A DNA stretch of 64,000 nucleotides. Source: a virus. Location: positions 1 through 64,000 of IMG/VR virus record IMGVR_UViG_3300045256_000058, one strand, 5' to 3'. The notes beneath the pieces are model-generated. The model did not search any database and was not told where the DNA came from. It saw only the letters and a list, made by a program, of their open reading frames with translations. Positions 2,338 through 15,923 of the stretch are shown here, one piece after another (within the stretch, counting starts at the first letter, position 1; every line of letters starts with the position of its first letter). The translations under genes were made by a program, and so were the position numbers.

Positions 2338-4031
2338 TGAACGTAAAAGCACTAGCACCTCTTGACTTTAATGTTGAGAGTTATTCAGAAATATTTAAGG
2401 CATATAAAGAAGACCTTGAAAATTACATTCAATCATTTTCAGGGAAAAGAGATGATGATACTCAATATGCTAAAGATTATTTTCTAAGCAAACTGACTGA
2501 AAGATGGCAACCTATATTAGATTTTAATCAAAATAGAATTTTACGAGATATTCAAGAGCTTCAAACTCCAAAAACAGAGTTTATTGCCTCTCTTGGATTA
2601 AAAGAAGCTCTAGCTCACTATAAGCCTGCGGGTGCTTGGTTGATTCCAAATCTTCTAAGAGCGCATGGTGCTATGTATCTATTAGGTGGTGAACCTAAAG
2701 CTGGTAAATCTCTATTGGTTAACTTTCTAATCTACGGTGTTGCACTTTCAGGAGAGTTTCTTGGAAGACCTGTAAAGACAGGAAACGTATTGTATATTCA
2801 GTTAGAAGAAAGTCTAGACACTATCGGTGAAAGATTGTTTCTAGCTGGATTCGGTGATATTACAGATGAAGATACCTCAATGGTAGTCAACTTTGGTCAC
2901 TTAGAAGAAATATCAAGAAAGGTTCAAATAGAAAGAGTCTTTGATATTACCAGTGACTTAGATTGGCTCATTAAAAAGATTCAAGAAGTAAAACCAGCAT
3001 TGGTAGTTGTAGATAGTTTAAGAGCGGCTAGTGTCAAGTCTAGTGCCTCTGAGAACTCAAATGAATTTGGTAAGCTTGTAATCTCTCTTCAACAAGTATT
3101 TAATGTTACGAATACTTGTGGTGTCGTAATTCACCACATGAGCAAGTTAGGTGGTAGAAATGTCAAGAAAACCTCGCTAATTGAACGGTTAGCTGGTCAT
3201 ACTTCTATCTCAGCAGCTTGTTCTGGGATTATTGGTATTATGTCTGAGGAAACTCAAACAGGAAGACTTATGACTCTTAAGACTCTTCCTCGTAATGGTA
3301 CACCTTTGACTCTTACCTATCAAATTAAGACTTCCGATGAAGGTCTATGGAAGTTAGAAAAGCAATGGGAAGATACTCCTATTAACAGTCCTTTTACATC
3401 TAAAATTCTACGTTTTCTAGCTAACAATCCAGACGAGTATTATTCTCAACGTACTCTTGCAAAAGAAATTGGTGTAGAGCTTAGTAACGTTGACTTTAAG
3501 GAAGCATTGCTCTATCTGCAAAACAGTCAAATTATTACTAAGAAGTATCAGAATAAGAAGTTTCATTATTCACTACCTTCAGATTCTCTATGGATTGTAA
3601 ATCCTCAATCTGTAAAGCAAATGTGTGATAACGAAACTATTATCGATGCTAACAATATGGTTCGTTGTGGAGATAGAGAAACATTACGTTCTCTTGTGTC
3701 TATGTGGTCTAAAGAACGTCAGCTTAAAGCTACTGAGGTTCTATTAGCTGAAGAAAGAGCAAGAATTAAACAGCTAATGTGTAGTTGGGAATATGAAGTA
3801 GGTGATGTAGCTCTATACGATGGTGTTAAAGTCACTGTAAAGAGTAAGCATAGTGCTAGTCCTAGTTTGACTCGTAACGAATATGTGATTGATTTCTTAG
3901 GTGAAGATACAATTGTTTCTGAGCAAGCATTGTCACCTGTTTCTATCGTTGCTGAAGAAGTAGAGGATGATGAAGAACTTATTCTCATTGACACACCTAT
4001 TGCTGAGGAAGAATTAACTTTTGAACTGTAA
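2328..4031 (+). CDS. RecA-fold SF4/RepA-type replicative helicase (AAA_25)
   Basis: Walker A GGEPKAGKS, LYIQLEE, Walker B VVVDSL, IHH motif; acidic C-terminus; start at 2322 or 2328. Confidence 0.8.
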   Translation: MSVVNVKALAPLDFNVESYSEIFKAYKEDLENYIQSFSGKRDDDTQYAKDYFLSKLTERWQPILDFNQNRILRDIQELQTPKTEFIASLGLKEALAHYKPAGAWLIPNLLRAHGAMYLLGGEPKAGKSLLVNFLIYGVALSGEFLGRPVKTGNVLYIQLEESLDTIGERLFLAGFGDITDEDTSMVVNFGHLEEISRKVQIERVFDITSDLDWLIKKIQEVKPALVVVDSLRAASVKSSASENSNEFGKLVISLQQVFNVTNTCGVVIHHMSKLGGRNVKKTSLIERLAGHTSISAACSGIIGIMSEETQTGRLMTLKTLPRNGTPLTLTYQIKTSDEGLWKLEKQWEDTPINSPFTSKILRFLANNPDEYYSQRTLAKEIGVELSNVDFKEALLYLQNSQIITKKYQNKKFHYSLPSDSLWIVNPQSVKQMCDNETIIDANNMVRCGDRETLRSLVSMWSKERQLKATEVLLAEERARIKQLMCSWEYEVGDVALYDGVKVTVKSKHSASPSLTRNEYVIDFLGEDTIVSEQALSPVSIVAEEVEDDEELILIDTPIAEEELTFEL

Positions 4032-4033
4032 TT

Positions 4034-4231
4034 ATGTATGTAGTTACTTATATAGAAGGTGTCTGGGAGTTTTATGAGGCAGGTTTGTTAGGTACATTTT
4101 CTACAATAGAAAAAGGTAAAGAAGCAGCAGAGAAAGACCAAGCTAATCCAAGTAATTTCTATAAACGAGGATATTCTGTTTTTCTTTGTATACCTGACGA
4201 ACCTCCTGAATATGTAGAACATTGGGATTAA
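4034..4231 (+). CDS. hypothetical protein
   Basis: ORF coupled to the helicase stop (TAATTATG junction). Confidence 0.6.
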   Translation: MYVVTYIEGVWEFYEAGLLGTFSTIEKGKEAAEKDQANPSNFYKRGYSVFLCIPDEPPEYVEHWD

Positions 4232-4911: not shown

Positions 4912-6773
4912 AAGTACATTACATTACACAGGCTTCACAATTAGACTATGTATTTCGTGCTTTTACTTCTAAGGGATATGTTGGTCTAGATACAGAAACT
5001 ACTGGTCTAGACCCTCATACCTCTCGATTACGATTGATTCAACTCGCTACAGATAACGGCATATTTCTAATCGACTGCTTTAAGGTTAAGAATGCGTATG
5101 AATGGGTAAATAAATTACTTCATGCACATCCTTACTGTGTTTATGTAGGTCATAATCTAAAGTTTGATATGAAGATGCTATGGGCTAACGGTATTGAATT
5201 AACTGGCTTAAAGATATTCGATACAATGTTAGCTGCCAATATTTATGAAGGTGGTTTACCTTATAAATTCGGCTTAAAAGATGTAGCAGAGAGATTTCTA
5301 GATGAGAATGTAGATAAAACAGAGCAATTATCAGATTGGTCATTGCCTGAACTCTCTTCATCTCAGTTACATTACGCCGCAAAAGATGCTTGGATGGTAA
5401 AAGAGTTAGCCCCTATTCTTTCTAACTATTTAATAGAAGATGGATTAGAGGCAGTATTTGAGCTAGAAATACGAGCATTATTTTGCTTGGCTGCAATGGA
5501 GTATTTTGGTACTCGACTTGACTTGAATAGATTGAATGAGCTTAGACCAGTTTATGAAGCAAAGCAGCTAAGAGCAGAGAGTGATTTTCTACTTTATGTT
5601 CCGTCTCGTTTTGTTCGCTACAATCTTTTCGGAGAAATCGTAGACAAAGGTGTTGAAGTTACTTCTTCTGACCAAGTATTAAAAGTATTACGAGAGCTAG
5701 GTATTCCAGACCCAGATTGCTTAGAAAATGAGAGTGATGAATGCATACTTGACCCTTTTATTAAATCAACTGGGTCTAACGTTCTAAAACTCTTAGATAC
5801 TGATGAGTATCCCATTCTTGATGCATTATTTGCTCATAGAAAGGTATCTAAACTTTTGAGTGCATATGTATACTCGCTTCCAGAACTAATTAACCCGAAA
5901 ACGGGTAGAATACATCCTCATTTTAATCAGTGTGTTAGAACAGGTAGACTTTCTTCTTCTAATCCTAATGCACAGAATATGCCTCGTCCTAATCCTGATG
6001 AACCTTTATCTATTCGCAGTTGTTTTATTGCTAATCAAGGTAATGTTCTAATTGATTGTGACTACTCGCAAATTGAACTTCGAGTAATGGCTGAAGTATG
6101 TGGTGACGTAGGTATGTTAGAAGAGTTTCTAACTGGTAAAGACCCTTACGCTAACACTGCTGCATTACTAAGCTCTATGACTTACGATGAATTTGTAACT
6201 CTTCCTAAATCTGAGTATAAAAAGCGTAGACAAAATGCGAAAGCTGTTAGATTGGGATATAACTATGCGATGGGTGCTAAGAAGTTTAAGAGATATGCAA
6301 AACAGACTTACGGTGTATCTATGACAGAGAAAGAAGCATTTGAAAATAGAAGACTATATTTTGATGCTTATCCTGCGCTAACCGAGTATCATAAACAGTT
6401 TTTCGATAAGTCAATTTTAGAGGTACGAACATTACCTCCATTTAATAGACGTAGGCAATGGGAAGAATATCCTGGTGTACCTGCGTTAGCTAATCATCCT
6501 ATTCAAGGAACAAGTGCTGATATTACTAAACTTGCAATGGCTCTTATTTATGAAAGATTGTATGACAAAGGTTATTCTCCTTTACAATCTTGGGATATTA
6601 TGCCTATTCTTCAAGTTCATGATGAAATCGTACTTGAATCTACTATTGAATTAGGTGAGGAAGCAAGATTAATAGAACAAACTGCAATGATAGAAGCTGG
6701 CGAGGTAGTGTTGCATGAATGCCCCGTTCTAGCCGAAGCAAAGATTATTGCAAATCTAAGTCAAAAGGACTAA
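4908..6773 (+). CDS. polA: DNA polymerase family A with 3'-5' exonuclease
   Basis: Exo DTET, HNLKFD, YAAKD; TGRLSSSNPN; motif A DYSQIELR; motif B R..AK...G..Y; motif C VHDE. Confidence 0.95.
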   Translation: MKVHYITQASQLDYVFRAFTSKGYVGLDTETTGLDPHTSRLRLIQLATDNGIFLIDCFKVKNAYEWVNKLLHAHPYCVYVGHNLKFDMKMLWANGIELTGLKIFDTMLAANIYEGGLPYKFGLKDVAERFLDENVDKTEQLSDWSLPELSSSQLHYAAKDAWMVKELAPILSNYLIEDGLEAVFELEIRALFCLAAMEYFGTRLDLNRLNELRPVYEAKQLRAESDFLLYVPSRFVRYNLFGEIVDKGVEVTSSDQVLKVLRELGIPDPDCLENESDECILDPFIKSTGSNVLKLLDTDEYPILDALFAHRKVSKLLSAYVYSLPELINPKTGRIHPHFNQCVRTGRLSSSNPNAQNMPRPNPDEPLSIRSCFIANQGNVLIDCDYSQIELRVMAEVCGDVGMLEEFLTGKDPYANTAALLSSMTYDEFVTLPKSEYKKRRQNAKAVRLGYNYAMGAKKFKRYAKQTYGVSMTEKEAFENRRLYFDAYPALTEYHKQFFDKSILEVRTLPPFNRRRQWEEYPGVPALANHPIQGTSADITKLAMALIYERLYDKGYSPLQSWDIMPILQVHDEIVLESTIELGEEARLIEQTAMIEAGEVVLHECPVLAEAKIIANLSQKD

Positions 6774-6775
6774 TT

Positions 6776-6967
6776 ATGGCAAAAGGATTTACAGTAAAAC
6801 AACAAATGCACCCAAATATTAAGAAGCTTCTTTTAAGAGACTTTCGTAGTCCGCTAAATGAAGTACGCCGTTTGGATGCAAGTGCTTATGAAGATGAATT
6901 TCTAAATTCTCTTTCTGAGGAAGACCGTAAAAAGCTAAAACAATTAGCGCATGGAACCGGGAGGTAA
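6776..6967 (+). CDS. small hypothetical protein (MAKGF... N-terminus)
   Basis: TAATTATG junction after the polA stop; 63 aa; the track start at 6719 lies inside polA. Confidence 0.6.
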   Translation: MAKGFTVKQQMHPNIKKLLLRDFRSPLNEVRRLDASAYEDEFLNSLSEEDRKKLKQLAHGTGR

Positions 6968-7387: not shown

Positions 7388-7639
7388 ATGACAACAATAC
7401 TTGAGTACGAAAAAAGAATGAGTGTTAAAGGACGAAGAGTTTTATGCAAGTACGATAGGTTACTTGTCGATAAAGTAGGTCTTCCGATATTTTTAAGTTT
7501 CAAACCAGATAATCACCTTGTTTTAGTCTTGAAATCTGATGTATCTTCTGATAAAATAAAAGAACTGTTGCAAGTTATATCAAAGTGGTTTGCTAGCTTA
7601 AAAGTTATAGATTGGAATTATTCGGAGAACCATAAATGA
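7388..7639 (+). CDS. hypothetical protein
   Basis: AAGGA upstream; ATGA overlap with nrdA. Confidence 0.6.
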   Translation: MTTILEYEKRMSVKGRRVLCKYDRLLVDKVGLPIFLSFKPDNHLVLVLKSDVSSDKIKELLQVISKWFASLKVIDWNYSENHK

Positions 7640-9336
7640 GTAAGAGATTAGAAGCTAAGGTTTCTAGAGTAAAAAATGAACTTAAAACAATGTTAGAAAG
7701 TACACCTCAACTGGGTGTGGTAGGAAGAGTAAGGGATTGGTTATATGACCCTGAATCTCGGTATCCAGTTAGCTGTACCATTCTAGCAGTTGAAGATACG
7801 ATGGAAGGAGTTAACTCTATTGAATATTCTTGGCTATTTACGTCAAAGAATCTACGCTACGGTGCAGGAGTTACTCTAGATTTAAGTAAATTACGTGCAA
7901 ATGGTACTGACAACGGAAGAGGCTTAGTGTCATCAGGGGCAGTCTCTTTCGCAAAGATTTACTCTTCACTAAACGAAATTCTTCGCAGAGGTGGGAAGTT
8001 CAAGAATGGAGCAGTTGTTGTTTATTTAGATGCTAATCACCCGGATTTACCTGAGTTTCTAGCTCTAAAACCTTCCGAAGCTCCTTGGATTAAGAAAGCA
8101 GTATATGTAGACTCTAATCCCAAATCATCCGACTACATTATGAATAATCCACATTTGGATGCAATTCTTGATGGTGTTAGATATGGTACTGTTTGGCTTG
8201 CTAAAAAGAGATGGGAGCATCCAGATACACATGAAACTATTGATTATGCTCCTGACCCAGCTAATCCTGATAATTACCGTTTATATAGTAATGTCTGCTT
8301 AGAAATTCTTCTACCTAATCGTGGTACTTGTACACTAAGTCACGTTAATTTAGGTCAATGTAATCTTAAGACTATTCGTAGAGCATTTCGTCGTGGTATG
8401 AAGTTTCTCTGCGAACTTCACGGTATTACTGGTGCTGGACGAGATAATTACTATCTATCTCCGACAGAAGATAAGCAAGTAGGTCTTGGAGTCTTCGGAT
8501 TAGCGAATCTATTAGCTCGATATAAAGTTTCATATTCAGACTTTACATTTGCTCTGCAAGGCTATCTGAATCTCGATACTGCTGATGAATTAAACAATAA
8601 AGAAGCATTGCAAAAATACTACGGTAAGAAGGCTGTTGCTCTTGTAGAACAAATCTATCTCGGTTTTCAAGATGCCGCAAAGATTGCTCGTAGATACAAA
8701 ATGAAGAGAGCATTTACTGTTGCTCCTACAGCATCTTGTTCATTCCGTTATCAAGATTTAGACGGGTATACAACTACACCTGAAATCTCACCTCCTATTT
8801 GTCATGCAGAGACGAAGAAGACTGTTAGAGATAGCTCAACATTCGGTCAAGTTGAATATCAATACCCATTAAATGTTGAAACTGCGGCATCGGTTGGATG
8901 GGATATTTATGAAACTCTGGTAGAAAATTGGCAAGACTTAATGGCGACTACTGGATTAGCTCATAGTATTTCATTTAATATTTGGAATCAATGTCCGGTA
9001 GACCGTGAATGGTTTGAAGGTTGGTTAGAAGGTTCAACAATCACCACTTACTATCGTATGCTTGTTGAGCAAGATTTTGTAGATAAGTCAACTGTGGGCA
9101 CTGGATTAGAAGATGATGAACTATTAGCTTCTACTCAAGACTTCTTTATGCCAGTAGATGATGAAGATTCCTATTCTATTCCTCTTGATTTAGAGAACGA
9201 TATTGTTTACACAGATGAACAAACAAAGACAGATTTTCTATCAATGTTTGGTTCTGCTGCGAAAGCCAATGTAGGAACGGATATTGAGCCTGGAGCGATG
9301 TGTACTGAAACTATGTGCGTAGCTTGTGCTGAGTAA
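7636..9336 (+). CDS. nrdA: ribonucleotide reductase class I alpha subunit (short cyanophage type)
   Basis: PVSC, NVCLE (NxCxE), GTCTL, APTASCS, TTYY, C-terminal CxxC; adjacent ferritin-like beta gene. Confidence 0.9.
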   Translation: MSKRLEAKVSRVKNELKTMLESTPQLGVVGRVRDWLYDPESRYPVSCTILAVEDTMEGVNSIEYSWLFTSKNLRYGAGVTLDLSKLRANGTDNGRGLVSSGAVSFAKIYSSLNEILRRGGKFKNGAVVVYLDANHPDLPEFLALKPSEAPWIKKAVYVDSNPKSSDYIMNNPHLDAILDGVRYGTVWLAKKRWEHPDTHETIDYAPDPANPDNYRLYSNVCLEILLPNRGTCTLSHVNLGQCNLKTIRRAFRRGMKFLCELHGITGAGRDNYYLSPTEDKQVGLGVFGLANLLARYKVSYSDFTFALQGYLNLDTADELNNKEALQKYYGKKAVALVEQIYLGFQDAAKIARRYKMKRAFTVAPTASCSFRYQDLDGYTTTPEISPPICHAETKKTVRDSSTFGQVEYQYPLNVETAASVGWDIYETLVENWQDLMATTGLAHSISFNIWNQCPVDREWFEGWLEGSTITTYYRMLVEQDFVDKSTVGTGLEDDELLASTQDFFMPVDDEDSYSIPLDLENDIVYTDEQTKTDFLSMFGSAAKANVGTDIEPGAMCTETMCVACAE

Positions 9337-9345
9337 GTTGTAAGT

Positions 9346-9412
9346 AATACCTCACATTACTATCTAGATAGAACAGTTTTACTGGACTTGTAGTGTGGGG
9401 TATTGTTATAAT
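9346..9412 (+). promoter_or_regulatory. stem-loop (9346-9360/9390-9404) overlapping an extended -10 promoter (TGtTATAAT) for nrdB
   Basis: AATACCTCACATTAC...GTAGTGTGGGGTATT (2 G:U pairs), then TATAAT at 9407-9412. Confidence 0.6.
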
Positions 9413-9472
9413 GAAAAAACGAGCGAAAAAGATTTTTTCTAAATTTAAGTTTTAGTATTTTAGAGGCGGTTT

Positions 9473-10201
9473 ATGGGACTAAGTTTTTATGCACAAGTAG
9501 AAAAGAATCGGAAAGTGTGGAGTCCAATTGAGCCTGTGAAATCTGAAGCCGGAGTACCAGGGAGTGAAGATACACTCTCTAGATGCTTTTCGTTAAAGGC
9601 TTTAGAAATTCCAGTAAAAGATTTTATTCTTGATGGATTAGCACGTTCAGAAAGTCAAATTTTAGGTGAAGAAGGTAAAGCTTCTCTGCTTAGAAATACA
9701 ATTGATGAAGAAAAGCATGATATTGCGCTGTATAACTGTATTAAAGTATTTAGTGCATACAATAAAGATTACGAGCGTCTAGTAGCACCTATTGTAGAAG
9801 CATGGATTAATCATCCAGACCATCCAATTACAAAAGCTGCCACCTTAGAGAATGGGATTTTTTTTGTCGTATTACCAATCTATAGACAGTTTGGTGGTGA
9901 GGCAGCTAGAATGACATCTCTAGACATTTCTGCGGATGAACGTAATCATGTGCAATTGCATCGTTATGCTGCAAAGGAATTAGGTTATAGACCATCTAAG
10001 TCTTTGGATAATCTAAGAAAGGCTACTGTTGATTGGTTGGTTGAAAAGTTTGAAGTTCCAGGCTATAATAAAGAAGTCTTTCTAAAAGCTTCAGATAGCT
10101 TGATGTATAAAGGTATTACTTCTGAGCTTGACTTTACACGTACATCGACTGTTCCCGCATTCTTTGAAAGACGTTCAGATACATTACCTTCATATTCCTA
10201 A
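9473..10201 (+). CDS. nrdB: ribonucleotide reductase class I beta subunit
   Basis: Ferritin-like ligands ALE, DEEKH, LENGIFF, DERNH; C-terminal FFE...Y; follows nrdA. Confidence 0.85.
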   Translation: MGLSFYAQVEKNRKVWSPIEPVKSEAGVPGSEDTLSRCFSLKALEIPVKDFILDGLARSESQILGEEGKASLLRNTIDEEKHDIALYNCIKVFSAYNKDYERLVAPIVEAWINHPDHPITKAATLENGIFFVVLPIYRQFGGEAARMTSLDISADERNHVQLHRYAAKELGYRPSKSLDNLRKATVDWLVEKFEVPGYNKEVFLKASDSLMYKGITSELDFTRTSTVPAFFERRSDTLPSYS

Positions 10202-10203
10202 TT

Positions 10204-10248
10204 ATGAATTTCTATGATGACGGCGAACCGAGAGGTAGCGGACGTTAA
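10204..10248 (+). CDS. PatS-like RGSGR peptide, 14 aa (MNFYDDGEPRGSGR)
   Basis: ATG 2 nt after the nrdB stop (same TAATTATG junction as at 4029 and 6771); ends in RGSGR-stop; resembles Anabaena PatS (...[11 protein letters not shown]); followed by a hairpin. Confidence 0.7.
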   Translation: MNFYDDGEPRGSGR

Positions 10249-10260
10249 TATACTACTGAT

Positions 10261-10296
10261 TACCCCTTGACAAACTCAGGGGGTACTTAGTAGAAT
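10261..10296 (+). promoter_or_regulatory. sigma70-type promoter (TTGACA-18-TAGAAT) embedded in a hairpin
   Basis: TTGACA at 10267-10272, TAGAAT at 10291-10296; inverted repeat TACCCCTTGA/TCAGGGGGTA at 10261-10285. Confidence 0.7.
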
Positions 10297-10327
10297 AGAA
10301 ATAGTTAAGTAGTAGCTAATATATGAA

Positions 10328-10552
10328 ATGCCATATCCTAAGACTAAAAAATGGAAAAAGGTTTATTTCGTAATACAGACTTATCCATTTTTCCAAACTT
10401 GCGGGTTCACATTTTCCCGTAAATATGCTGACAGTATTGCCAGTCAAATCGGACACCTGACTGGGACAAAGGGAAGAGTGGTTGATTTTACAAGAGAAAA
10501 TCTAAAAAAGTTAGATTTCCTTGAAAACCACCCCTTTATAGTAAAGAATTAA
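10328..10552 (+). CDS. hypothetical protein
   Basis: ORF downstream of the promoter and adjacent to thyX. Confidence 0.55.
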   Translation: MPYPKTKKWKKVYFVIQTYPFFQTCGFTFSRKYADSIASQIGHLTGTKGRVVDFTRENLKKLDFLENHPFIVKN

Positions 10553-10555
10553 TTT

Positions 10556-11449
10556 ATGTTTGTACAAATTGTTGCAGATTCGTATAACGAGGATACTCAA
10601 ACTCGTTTTACTTCTTTTATTGTTCGTTTCCCTAAAGTTCTACTTGCAGAATTAAATACTCACAGACAGTTAGTAAGAAATGCTCCTTCTAGTCGAGCTA
10701 TTACAATTACTCGAATGATTCGAAAGGTAGAAACTAATCCTTTTATTCCTACCTTTACTCTAACGCAAAAGGGTATGTCTGGCAATGAAAATATCGAACC
10801 AGACCAAGTAGAAGAAGCAACTAAATTATGGTTAGCTGCGAGAGATTCAGCAGTTAGCTATGTAGGAATGCTTGAACAACAAGGTATTCATAAACAAAAC
10901 TCCAATCGTCTACTAGATACATTTGCATATGTAGACCTTATTCTAAGTGGTACGGATTGGGATAACTTTTTCACACTTCGTACTGCACCTGAAGCTCAAC
11001 CAGAGTTTCGAGCAATTGCTATTGAAATGAAGAGGTTATATGACCAACGTAATTACAAAACTTTATCTCCTGGTGACTGGCATATCCCATTCGGGGATAA
11101 AATTCCTGATGATGTGCCGTTAGAAACAAAGATTCAAATTGCGGTAGCTAGATGTGCGCGTATCTCTTATGAGACTTATGACGGACAATTTTCTATTGAT
11201 GCAGATGTTGAATTATTTCATCGTCTAAAGGGTAGTGGACATCTATCACCATTCGAGCATGTAGCTAAAGCAATTCCTTCCGCAGACTTGGGTATTTTCT
11301 CATACACTTATGGCTATGCAATTCAATTACCAGAAGGTTTACGAGATAAATTATACCTGCTAGATGACGATAGTAAGGTATTGTGGACAAGACAGTATTC
11401 CGGTTTTTATACTTATCGACACCACTTAGAAGATGGTGTTTCTTTATAA
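10556..11449 (+). CDS. thyX: flavin-dependent thymidylate synthase
   Basis: AELNTHR..RN..SSR, FF.LR...AQPE, ARCARISY, H.SPFEH. Confidence 0.9.
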   Translation: MFVQIVADSYNEDTQTRFTSFIVRFPKVLLAELNTHRQLVRNAPSSRAITITRMIRKVETNPFIPTFTLTQKGMSGNENIEPDQVEEATKLWLAARDSAVSYVGMLEQQGIHKQNSNRLLDTFAYVDLILSGTDWDNFFTLRTAPEAQPEFRAIAIEMKRLYDQRNYKTLSPGDWHIPFGDKIPDDVPLETKIQIAVARCARISYETYDGQFSIDADVELFHRLKGSGHLSPFEHVAKAIPSADLGIFSYTYGYAIQLPEGLRDKLYLLDDDSKVLWTRQYSGFYTYRHHLEDGVSL

Positions 11450-12857: not shown

Positions 12858-12863
12858 ATACAT

Positions 12864-12939
12864 AGCAGGGATAGAGCTACGGTGCGCTCGCCGTCCCCAT
12901 AAGTCGGAGCTTAGGAAGGTTCAACTCCTCCCCCTGCCA
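12864..12939 (+). tRNA. tRNA-Met(CAT), initiator-like, atypical
   Basis: Cloverleaf GCAGGG/CCCTGC, D stem GAGC/GCTC (A11:U24), 1:72 mismatch, anticodon loop CCCATAA, T loop TTCAACT. Confidence 0.75.
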
Positions 12940-12959
12940 TTACCTTATATTTTCTAACT

Positions 12960-13493
12960 ATGATTACACTTAACGTTCCTTATGCAAGTCAACTAGATAA
13001 TAAATATAATCCTTATGGAACTTGTAACATTACGTCTGTTGCAATGTGTTTACGTTATTTTGGGATTGTTGGAGACGGGTCTGAATCTCAATTAGAAGAC
13101 CAACTATATGACAAGTGTGACCAATTAGGTTTAGATAGACATGACCCTTACGAACTAAAGAAACTTATCGAAACTTTCTATGGTAAACGAGTTCAAGATG
13201 ATTTCAAACCAAATGGAACTTTAGAAGATATTAAAGTTGCTCTAAATAAAGACCAACCATGTATTGTTCACGGTTATTTTACACGTTCAGGTCATGTAAT
13301 CGTAATTAAAGGTTATGACGAAAAAGGATTCATTGTAAATGACCCTTACGGAGAGTATTATGCGACTGGATATGATACGTCTGTCTCAGGAGAAGGTTTG
13401 CATTACTCTTACGATTTGATTGCTGGTGTATGTTCTCCAGAATCTAAATATAATCCAACTGATATTTGGTTACATAGAATTCGTAAAGTATAA
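12960..13493 (+). CDS. peptidase C39-like protein, putative endolysin
   Basis: VPY.SQ.DN, catalytic GTCNITSVAM, GHVIVIKGYD, VNDPYG. Confidence 0.8.
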   Translation: MITLNVPYASQLDNKYNPYGTCNITSVAMCLRYFGIVGDGSESQLEDQLYDKCDQLGLDRHDPYELKKLIETFYGKRVQDDFKPNGTLEDIKVALNKDQPCIVHGYFTRSGHVIVIKGYDEKGFIVNDPYGEYYATGYDTSVSGEGLHYSYDLIAGVCSPESKYNPTDIWLHRIRKV

Positions 13494-13499
13494 ATTCTT

Positions 13500-13580
13500 G
13501 GCAGTATGGTGGAATTGGGTATACACGTCTGACTTAAAATCAGATGCTTCGGCTTGTGGGTTCGAATCCCTCTACTGTCA
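13500..13580 (+). tRNA. tRNA-Leu(TAA)
   Basis: GGCAGTA/TACTGTC, TCTGA-CTTAAAA-TCAGA, variable arm, GGGTTCGAATCCC. Confidence 0.95.
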
Positions 13581-13605
13581 TCTCAATTAACTAAAGGAAA
13601 AACTT

Positions 13606-13770
13606 ATGCCTACATTTACTTGGTCACTAATTGATATTGCTATTGCAGTACTTACCGTGCTTCTTATTGGAAGTGCGCTTGGAGTAAATATTGTAACCGG
13701 ATTAAGTATTCCAATCTTACTGTTGGCTCTTGTAGTTTTAGTAATTATTAGAGGATTACCTAGAGCATAG
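13606..13770 (+). CDS. small two-TM membrane protein, putative holin (54 aa; absent from the ORF track)
   Basis: MPTFTWSLIDIAIAVLTVLLIGSALGVNIVTGLSIPILLLALVVLVIIRGLPRA; AAGGA RBS; next to the peptidase. Confidence 0.6.
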   Translation: MPTFTWSLIDIAIAVLTVLLIGSALGVNIVTGLSIPILLLALVVLVIIRGLPRA

Positions 13771-13776
13771 TTACGT

Positions 13777-13848
13777 GCCTCTTAAGCATATGTAGTGATG
13801 TTCCTGTCTTGTAAACAGGGGAACTGGACGCAACTTCCAGAAGAGGCT
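13777..13848 (+). tRNA. tRNA-Thr(TGT), atypical T loop
   Basis: GCCTCTT/AAGAGGC, CCTGT-CTTGTAA-ACAGG, CTGGA-CGCAACT-TCCAG. Confidence 0.85.
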
Positions 13849-13852
13849 TTTT

Positions 13853-13925
13853 GGGACATTCGTATAGTGGCTATTATGGCGGACTCTTAATCCGTTCGAC
13901 GGGAGTTCAAATCTTCCATGTCCCA
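13853..13925 (+). tRNA. tRNA-Lys(CTT)
   Basis: GGGACAT/ATGTCCC, GCGGA-CTCTTAA-TCCGT, TTCAAAT loop. Confidence 0.9.
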
Positions 13926-13941
13926 TTATTGGAGGTGGATA

Positions 13942-14505
13942 ATGTTTGGTAATTTACTAAAAGACTTACTGGAAGCACAGTATGGTGATTTAGAAGAAGG
14001 TATGATTCATTTATCTCTTGTTACTGAATGGGATAAAGAAGAGGTAGAAAATGTACTTAACAATAATCTCGTTCCTACTAAAAAAGTCTGTCAATTAATT
14101 GAAGATATTCTTCCAGATATGGATAGAGAAGAGACAAATCTTTTCTATGCTACGAGACAATTAACTGAACGACAAATAAAAGGCATGGCTATAAATCGAA
14201 GATTAGTTAAATCGGAGAATAATGTGGCAGCAGACCCAGGCTTTGATTATGATTATAAACCTAGTCGTAAAAATCTTCCAGAAGACCTAAATTACGTACT
14301 TACACATAGACTGAGTAACGATGAAGGGTGGGTAAGGGAGTTTAGTAAACTTTATGGTCATGATTACGATGATATAAAGTATATGTTTCGACATCTTTCA
14401 AACGAGGATGTAAATCATTTATATAGAACAGGTTTATTGACGACAGATGAAGCCAGAGAAATCATTTTCTATGAAGATTTGAATAGAGTTACAGGAAAAT
14501 TCTGA
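13942..14505 (+). CDS. hypothetical protein whose N-terminus is paralogous to the scaffold (58354-59172)
   Basis: GGAGGT RBS before ATG at 13942; FGNLLKDLLEAQYGD vs FGELLLDLIEAQYGD. Confidence 0.7.
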   Translation: MFGNLLKDLLEAQYGDLEEGMIHLSLVTEWDKEEVENVLNNNLVPTKKVCQLIEDILPDMDREETNLFYATRQLTERQIKGMAINRRLVKSENNVAADPGFDYDYKPSRKNLPEDLNYVLTHRLSNDEGWVREFSKLYGHDYDDIKYMFRHLSNEDVNHLYRTGLLTTDEAREIIFYEDLNRVTGKF

Positions 14506-14726
14506 TGAATACACAAGATGCTTTTGCAGTATTAATGGACAATATTCAAAAAGATGACTCATATGCTATCGCATGGCAATGTAATTTAGCAATGCCATTT
14601 TATGATGCAGGCGGAGATATAAAAACAGCAAACAAAGGAGCAGATGCTATTATGAAACTATTTTTTAATGTAGATATGAAGGAAGTACGAAAACGTTTAG
14701 GTGACAAGAGTGATTTGTATACTTAA
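14505..14726 (+). CDS. hypothetical protein
   Basis: TGATG coupling with the upstream gene. Confidence 0.6.
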   Translation: MNTQDAFAVLMDNIQKDDSYAIAWQCNLAMPFYDAGGDIKTANKGADAIMKLFFNVDMKEVRKRLGDKSDLYT

Positions 14727-14730
14727 ACAA

Positions 14731-14802
14731 GGGCTATTGGCGTAATGGTAGCGTAGTGGACTTTTAATCCATCAGGTCAGAGTTCGACCCTCTGGTAGCC
14801 CA
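14731..14802 (+). tRNA. tRNA-Lys(TTT)
   Basis: GGGCTAT/GTAGCCC, GTGGA-CTTTTAA-TCCAT, CAGAG-TTCGACC-CTCTG. Confidence 0.95.
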
Positions 14803-15475: not shown

Positions 15476-15923
15476 TCATATAGCTAAAGTTTCTAGCTTC
15501 TGCTCCAGCTTTTTTAGCAGCTTTTGCATTACTTACAAATTGTTTACCTTGCTTAAATCCTTGTCTTTTTGCTCGATTTGTAGCACCCACTTGACCCGGA
15601 CTTAATTGCTTCCATGCAGCAGCAGGTAAATACCGATTTACTGTAATTACATTACCATCAATATCTCTTTGAATTGCAGGGCTACCATCATAAGTAGTCC
15701 AATCTTCTGCTAACCATTTTTTGAGAGAGTTATTTTCAGGTGAAGGCATATCGTCAAGATACTCTCCACCTCTTTCTTTGTATAGTTGAACTGCACGCGA
15801 TGCTTTTCTAGCATTCCATTGACCAGGAATACCATATTTATCACCAGATTTTGTTTCTTCAACTACTTCATCCCAAATTACAGGCTGTTTTCTTTTTGCG
15901 GTTTTACTAAAATATGAGTACAT
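15453..15923 (-). CDS. basic protein resembling the DUF5872 family, putative internal protein
   Basis: GQW.ARKA....YK..GG.Y, LKKW..EDW, RYLP..AW motifs (family recalled, not searched). Confidence 0.6.
   Translation of the reverse strand: MYSYFSKTAKRKQPVIWDEVVEETKSGDKYGIPGQWNARKASRAVQLYKERGGEYLDDMPSPENNSLKKWLAEDWTTYDGSPAIQRDIDGNVITVNRYLPAAAWKQLSPGQVGATNRAKRQGFKQGKQFVSNAKAAKKAGAEARNFSYMTKSLHHY

Follow-up and report, generated by a model that had tools for sequence, protein, structure and literature searches.

A candidate PatS-type mini-gene behind the RNR genes of an uncultured cyanophage

A 14-codon open reading frame (mini-ORF) at positions 10204-10248 (+) of the window, which covers the initial 64 kb of an IMG/VR record of 146,347 bp called complete by CheckV, is predicted to encode MNFYDDGEPRGSGR followed by a stop (translation of the window) and is a candidate PatS-type mini-gene. 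PatS is the signal by which filamentous cyanobacteria turn off HetR, a regulator of their development. Judged from its sequence, the likeness of this peptide to PatS is far beyond chance. Whether the mini-ORF is a genuine mini-gene of the PatS type that acts on HetR, which would imply a HetR-bearing filamentous host, is a question that we regard as evenly poised. That a lytic cyanophage encodes its own version of the morphogen, makes it with its nucleotide-synthesis genes and switches off HetR, the filaments being kept vegetative, is a possibility that we advance tentatively, a little short of an even chance. The RNR genes and the parts of the mini-ORF are as follows (window coordinates):

7636-9336, plus strand: RNR large subunit, 566 aa, 5′ of the mini-ORF within one transcription unit (PF02867, E = 7.8e-26; the phrog search agrees)
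9473-10201, plus strand: RNR small subunit (nrdB) of the cyanophage “Cyano SP” type, 242 aa (phrog_6799, E = 5.5e-58)
10199-10206, plus strand: TAATTATG, the stop-2nt-start junction of the RNR beta gene and the mini-ORF, an octamer that recurs at three real junctions
10204-10248, plus strand: candidate PatS-type mini-gene, 14 codons (the first being ATG) plus stop, identical in L051 and L052
10207-10221, plus strand: codons AAT TTC TAT GAT GAC for N-F-Y-D-D, which fit the PatS signature N-F-x-D-[DE] (45-locus patS pattern set)
10222-10230, plus strand: codons GGC GAA CCG for G-E-P, a 3-residue insert that divides the two PatS blocks and is present in 0/45 PatS
10231-10245, plus strand: codons AGA GGT AGC GGA CGT for RGSGR (PatS-5, the HetR-binding pentapeptide; function from PMC4649674), with TAA directly 3′

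The mini-ORF and the PatS signature

The initial annotation had described a 14-codon ORF that ends in RGSGR-stop and starts 2 nt 3′ of the nrdB stop; translation confirms both statements, the TAA of nrdB occupying positions 10199-10201. The frame of the mini-ORF differs from that of nrdB, no alternative canonical start is present upstream in frame besides the ATG at 10204, and an SD motif ahead of it is absent. The residues are ordered N-F-Y-D-D, G-E-P and RGSGR-stop, with both PatS blocks present, and the insert places a proline immediately N-terminal of RGSGR. This RGSGR is the sole one in the six frames of the 146-kb genome. Among the 1,444 small ATG-ORFs of 8-30 aa in the whole genome, RG[ST]GR is found in one and NFxD[DE] is likewise found in one, namely the mini-ORF in both cases.

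The specificity of the PatS pattern was assessed by a scan of one genome per species for 185,579 prokaryote species (596 Gb). N-F-x-D-[DE]-RGSGR-stop was detected at 45 loci in these genomes, all of them (45/45) in cyanobacteria, with none seen outside that group. The record titles name heterocyst-forming genera or Nostocales in nearly all cases, the exceptions being a few MAGs called just “cyanobacterium”, one Chroococcales and one Leptolyngbyaceae. All 45 loci are short patS ORFs, 13-17 aa long counted from Met and of the form M..(V/C/T)NFxDERGSGR-stop, in which DERGSGR is contiguous and invariant (45/45) and position x is occupied by L (20 loci), F (10), C (9), V (2), S (2), Y (1) or A (1). 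Since NFxDERGSGR is shared by all 45 loci with x free, N-F-x-D-E is a hallmark of PatS and not a quirk of the PCC 7120 sequence. The N-F-x-D resemblance to PatS that the initial annotation had pointed out is thus genuine, and the signature is a highly specific one.

With the six-frame composition of the genome itself as the basis, chance would produce RGSGR 0.09 times per 146-kb genome in six frames, and ATG..RGSGR-stop about 1e-3 times per genome. A further 4,840 small ORFs from fetched phage loci contained NFxD[DE] at three loci, all of which encode a single distinct peptide, and the joint expectation for ATG..NFxD[DE]..RGSGR-stop is about 1e-7 per genome. A search of the 2.9 million viral contigs of IMG/VR, with the window's own record excluded, for NFxD[DE] followed after 0, 1, 2 or 3 codons by RGSGR-stop gave no matches; one reversed control pattern also gave 0 matches in the 2.9 million contigs. 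Allowing for the size of the scan and for the choice of the pattern after the peptide was known, we estimate that the expected number of coincidences that fall in a cyanophage, in an intergenic region, on the coding strand and 2 nt past a stop is well below 1e-3.

In size (14 aa, compared with 13-17 aa), in the lack of a signal peptide or any hydrophobic stretch, in the N-F-x-D-acidic block and in a C-terminal RGSGR immediately ahead of the stop, the phage peptide resembles PatS, and its NFYD is also found in the natural PatS of Richelia sp. UBA3308 (L066). It differs from PatS in that the G-E-P insert splits the two blocks, leaving no contiguous DERGSGR, in that D replaces the invariant E of PatS, and in that Met abuts N-F, whereas the Met of PatS lies 2-3 residues upstream. 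The usage of arginine codons is different as well. Furthermore, the phage copy is viral and stands behind RNR genes, while PatS is encoded in the cyanobacterial chromosome, and the HetR/HetZ-dependent DIF1 motif TCCGGA occurs 0 times in the phage genome, although it is not expected of a viral copy. Since three sequence features of PatS are shared, a contiguous DERGSGR is lacking and the copy is viral, we class the peptide as a PatS-like variant and not as a PatS orthologue.

Two other RGSGR-containing products were compared. The phage peptide has in common with PatX (Asl2332 family) an RG(S/T)GR core that follows a proline; prolines precede the motif in PatX (PMC5812504), whose active product is the HetR-binding hexapeptide XRG(S/T)GR (PMC12756182; PMC5812504). 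PatX is an exported protein of 50-115 aa with a Sec signal peptide, a proline-rich stretch and [HY]RG[ST]GR; the periplasmic peptidase PatP cleaves it, and its gene usually adjoins hetR. In contrast, the phage peptide has 14 aa and no hydrophobic leader, and its single proline is the only resemblance beyond the core. With HetN, which is ketoacyl-reductase-like and carries an internal ERGSGR, only the RGSGR pentapeptide is common; HetN, which we take to be a protein of roughly 290 aa, has a short-chain dehydrogenase fold with the motif inside it, as opposed to an ORF of 14 aa. By sequence, the phage peptide is therefore neither PatX, given its length and the missing signal peptide, nor HetN.

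Phage lineage and host

The phage genome has a GC content of about 35%. Its proteins are related to those of the Pseudanabaena siphoviruses PA-SR01 and Pam2 (57% identity for MCP, 48% for DNA polymerase and 34-41% for large tail proteins), and no cultured phages besides these two are comparably close. The host of these nearest cultured relatives is Pseudanabaena, a filamentous cyanobacterium. Pseudanabaena is reported to have lost hetR (PMC12669612). A comparison of MCP with 401 cyanobacterial genomes gave 0 matches.

All 56 matches obtained with the RNR small subunit in a tblastn search against cultured phages (56/56) were to cyanophages. The phage also encodes NblA, a protein of phycobilisome degradation (G000:115881-116165 in whole-genome coordinates), with identities of at most 48% to Nostocaceae copies and of 47% to Microcystis-phage copies. 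From NblA together with the Cyano-SP RNR, a phycobilisome-bearing cyanobacterial host is secure. We further infer that this host is a HetR-bearing filamentous, probably heterocyst-forming, cyanobacterium; the similarities of NblA and of a pilin-like protein to Nostocaceae sequences are not host-diagnostic. The initial annotation had held that both the RNR and a C39 peptidase fit a cyanobacterial host. For the RNR this stands, and NblA adds to it, whereas the C39 gene is uninformative: it was considered as a host clue and as a processor of PatS and was rejected on both counts, its domain being Peptidase_C39_2 of endolysin type.

Several other features of the genome were recorded. Outside the window, in stretches that include G000:134114-134548, the early region holds the genes of NblA and of the type IV pilin-like protein. 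Also in this region are genes for an RF-1 domain protein, DUF2828/DUF7788, ArdC-N with a zincin MPTase, a poly(A) polymerase head domain, dCMP deaminase, dUTPase and NUDIX. Within it, positions 12863-14802 contain tRNA genes (Met-CAT, Leu-TAA, Lys-CTT and Lys-TTT) that are interleaved with the Peptidase_C39_2 gene (12960-13493) and with small ORFs.

Avoidance of palindromic restriction sites is extreme throughout the genome (G000). Observed and expected counts are 0 and about 490 for GATC, 0 and 67-163 for GGCC, 0 and 104 for GGWCC, 0 and 41 for CYCGRG, and 0 and 78-149 for TTTAAA; ACATGT, CTGCAG, TGCGCA, TCCGGA and many other 6-mers are likewise missing from the genome. Avoidance of GATC, GGWCC and CYCGRG is common to Pam2 and most metagenomic relatives, while avoidance of TTTAAA is not.

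Gene context and conservation of the mini-ORF

The octamer TAATTATG that joins nrdB to the mini-ORF recurs at 4029 and 6771, with a further copy at 15921 (minus strand), and in each of these places it joins two real ORFs. The initial annotation had listed the first two of these junctions (4029-4036 and 6771-6778); they are confirmed, and the one at 15921 is an addition. In this genome, 48 of 149 same-strand junctions overlap or are at most 5 nt apart, and an SD-like motif is present in only 41% of the ORFs. It follows from these two figures that coupled re-initiation without an SD motif is the norm here. A stop followed after 2 nt by ATG is thus an ordinary coupled-gene junction in this phage genome, and translational coupling of the mini-ORF to nrdB is, from its sequence, likely.

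The mini-ORF lies 5′ of a hairpin and inside the RNR transcription unit. The features 3′ of it are as follows:

10253-10293, plus strand: hairpin with a 17-bp stem, 4 nt past the mini-ORF stop (RNA fold z = -4.8)
10267-10296, plus strand: TTGACA-18-TAGAAT, a sigma-70-like promoter for the downstream genes (11/12 consensus matches)
10328-10552, plus strand: conserved 74-aa gene at the end of the variable slot (a gene of 62-74 aa is found there in L056-L061)

None of 200 shuffled sequences folded as well as the hairpin, and the genome contains no second copy of it. The U tract of a terminator is absent, and the hairpin is not a canonical terminator; the initial annotation was right in placing a hairpin behind the mini-ORF. 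The -35 box (TTGACA) of the promoter-like site sits within the hairpin. The role of the hairpin may be to end the nrdAB transcript or to make it more stable; a U-less terminator, an RNA-stability element and an operator-type inverted repeat are all conceivable. A HetR site was ruled out, since the sequence reads CCCC-N13-GGGGG and not GGG-N5-CCC. An Rfam search of positions 9300-10700 gave no match. In the relatives, the gap behind nrdB contains a canonical terminator followed by promoter-like hexamers, as judged by reading the sequences by eye.

The check proposed along with the initial annotation, a scan of related phages for short RG(S/T)GR ORFs next to nrdB, speaks against conservation. 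Relatives were found by way of nrdB homologues, and a comparable ORF after nrdB is absent from all 8 syntenic ones, whose nrdB is 59-68% identical. No RG[ST]GR was found in Pam2, for which the whole genome was searched, or in the relative G001, a contig that is 58% complete and ends about 1 kb past the DNA polymerase, with the nrdB region outside it. A scan of JGI metagenomes returned 6 matches, all out of frame in unrelated GC-rich or soil contigs, and no homologue. The only other copies of the mini-ORF are in L051 and L052, two further assemblies of this phage that show 100% identity along 6.7 kb and 1.6 kb; since all three copies are identical, they permit no codon-level test of selection. 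The mini-ORF is a singleton, unique to this virus.

The distance between nrdB and the next gene varies from 36 to 177 nt in the relatives, and in L053, the closest relative by nrdB (68% identity), an Endonuclease VII gene (PF02945; L053:3707-4183) overlaps the end of nrdB and takes the place of the mini-ORF. The variable gap and this insertion indicate that the post-nrdB site is a slot for accessory DNA that comes and goes. The RNR genes in front of the slot vary, too. Their compact Cyano-SP form (566 + 242 aa; window 7636-10201) is found in this phage and about 33 metagenomic relatives, while the syntenic site of Pam2 (L107 13083-16462) is occupied by an NrdA/NrdB pair of the canonical class Ia (747 + 377 aa), which indicates that the RNR type has been exchanged within the lineage (non-orthologous replacement).

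Searches on the cyanobacterial side revealed no insert variant of PatS in 401 genomes (GTDB order) and no EPRGSGR-stop in 201 Nostocaceae genomes; there is thus no known donor gene. The arginine codons of the pentapeptide are swapped, AGA...CGT in the phage and CGT...AGA in patS, and this reversal leaves no DNA-level trace of a recent transfer.

Proposed action on HetR and competing readings

In crystals of the HetR hood domain in complex with ERGSGR, contacts are made via both arginines, the serine and the peptide main chain; the free N-terminal amine of the residue preceding RGSGR is clamped by HetR Glu254 and Asp256, while the side chain of this residue is irrelevant (PMC4649674). The active form is XRGSGR, and peptides of at least 7 residues bind HetR less well (PMC4649674). 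Processing of PatS-8 to PatS-5 and PatS-6 has been described (cited in PMC5812504). Synthesis and cleavage of PatS precursors are believed to take place in the cytoplasm, whereas PatX is exported (PMC12756182).

With this background, the mini-ORF can be pictured as an accessory gene of small size that occupies the variable slot behind nrdB. Because it sits between the nrdB stop and the hairpin, co-transcription with the RNR genes would be expected, and ribosomes that end at the nrdB TAA would re-initiate 2 nt further on and translate it. The product of 14 residues, having no signal peptide, should be cytoplasmic, as PatS is. Since longer peptides bind HetR less well, the 14-mer would need to be trimmed from its N-terminus by some peptidase, giving an X-RGSGR peptide, PRGSGR or EPRGSGR; the proline before RGSGR could stall trimming by aminopeptidases and stabilise this active core. 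X-RGSGR would then bind in the cleft of the hood domain and cause HetR to leave the DNA. For as long as the phage replicates, the infected cell, possibly along with neighbours reached via septal junctions, would not embark on heterocyst formation or on any other differentiation that depends on HetR. Transcription, translation, processing, binding to HetR and diffusion to neighbouring cells are all proposed steps of this scheme.

Three other readings of the locus have to be weighed. One can suppose that the 47 nt after nrdB are plain spacer and that the PatS-like frame is a chance ORF brought to the surface by a very large motif-directed scan. Such an origin would explain why the ORF is conserved in no relative and has no homologue in viral or metagenome collections; short ORFs are plentiful (1,444 of 8-30 aa in this genome), G-rich sequence of the hairpin type does yield R-G-x-G-R, as in the RGTGR at 13817 and the out-of-frame HRGSGR of L055, and the genus infected by the nearest cultured relatives reportedly lacks hetR. 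However, chance would have had to produce a combination expected about 1e-7 times per genome, built on a pattern that is PatS-specific in 596 Gb and gave 0 matches with all five patterns applied to IMG/VR, and to place it on the coding strand of a cyanophage, in an intergenic position 2 nt past a stop. We therefore consider a chance ORF unlikely. No more probable, in our judgement, is a peptide derived from PatS that is inert toward HetR, either as a decaying passenger from a former heterocyst-forming host or as a repurposed peptide. The singleton status of the mini-ORF and the hetR-less Pseudanabaena hosts of the relatives are in line with this, and so is the fact that DERGSGR is broken by a 9-nt insert and altered by an E-to-D change. 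Yet the frame is intact, a new ATG stands exactly before N-F, RGSGR is still directly before the stop and the junction is that of coupled genes, features that one would not expect passenger DNA to retain when a phage genome is densely packed.

The sequence could also act in cis: the passage of ribosomes might, for example, control whether the hairpin forms or where the nrdAB transcript ends, or the site might be an operator that overlaps the promoter. The peptide itself would then be irrelevant. Four nt separate the mini-ORF stop from a 17-bp hairpin, in the stem of which the -35 box of the next promoter is found, and the relatives show a terminator and then a promoter at the equivalent place (again, in sequences read by eye). 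This arrangement leaves the PatS-like residues unexplained, though, and a leader ORF is found in no relative, nothing in Rfam matches and the hairpin is unique in the genome; we give a purely cis-acting role little credence.

If the peptide is made and is active on HetR, we would be dealing with a virus that manipulates multicellular development in bacteria, and with the first case in which a virus mimics a signal for bacterial cell differentiation. Since heterocysts are terminally differentiated cells that are unlikely to produce much phage, blocking commitment to this fate would protect the investment of the phage; nitrogen fixation in infected blooms could drop as a result. In this respect the mini-ORF would resemble the auxiliary genes of cyanophages, e.g., NblA, which is also present here, in being a small host-like gene that would keep the infected cell in a condition that favours replication. 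The known auxiliary genes, in contrast, act on metabolism or on the photosynthetic apparatus, and among described ones we found none that acts on a developmental regulator. A full-text literature search retrieved no published phage PatS mimic or phage RGSGR peptide, in agreement with the initial annotation, whose author knew of none. As a natural insert variant, DD-GEP-RGSGR would bear on PatS processing and on the role of the conserved N-F-x-D-E block. The mini-ORF also amounts to a host prediction for an uncultured lineage of 146-kb phages whose cultured members infect Pseudanabaena only.

Two further RG[ST]GR sequences were considered as candidates and rejected. The second RG[ST]GR of this genome, RGTGR at 13817-13831 (in the context VNRGTGRN), belongs to a 31-codon GTG-ORF (window 13795-13890) and was judged to be due to chance, as it falls in a terminator-like non-coding hairpin located between a 54-aa membrane-protein ORF (13606-13770) and a tRNA-Lys gene (13852-13926). 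In L055, a 145-kb relative, a 21-codon ORF at L055:3030-3100 (+), MDSCKAYESRIPHRGSGRYNF, which is absent from this phage, contains a PatX-like P-HRGSGR. It is out of frame within nrdB, is not conserved and is probably a chance occurrence, the expectation for the scanned sequence being about 0.05.
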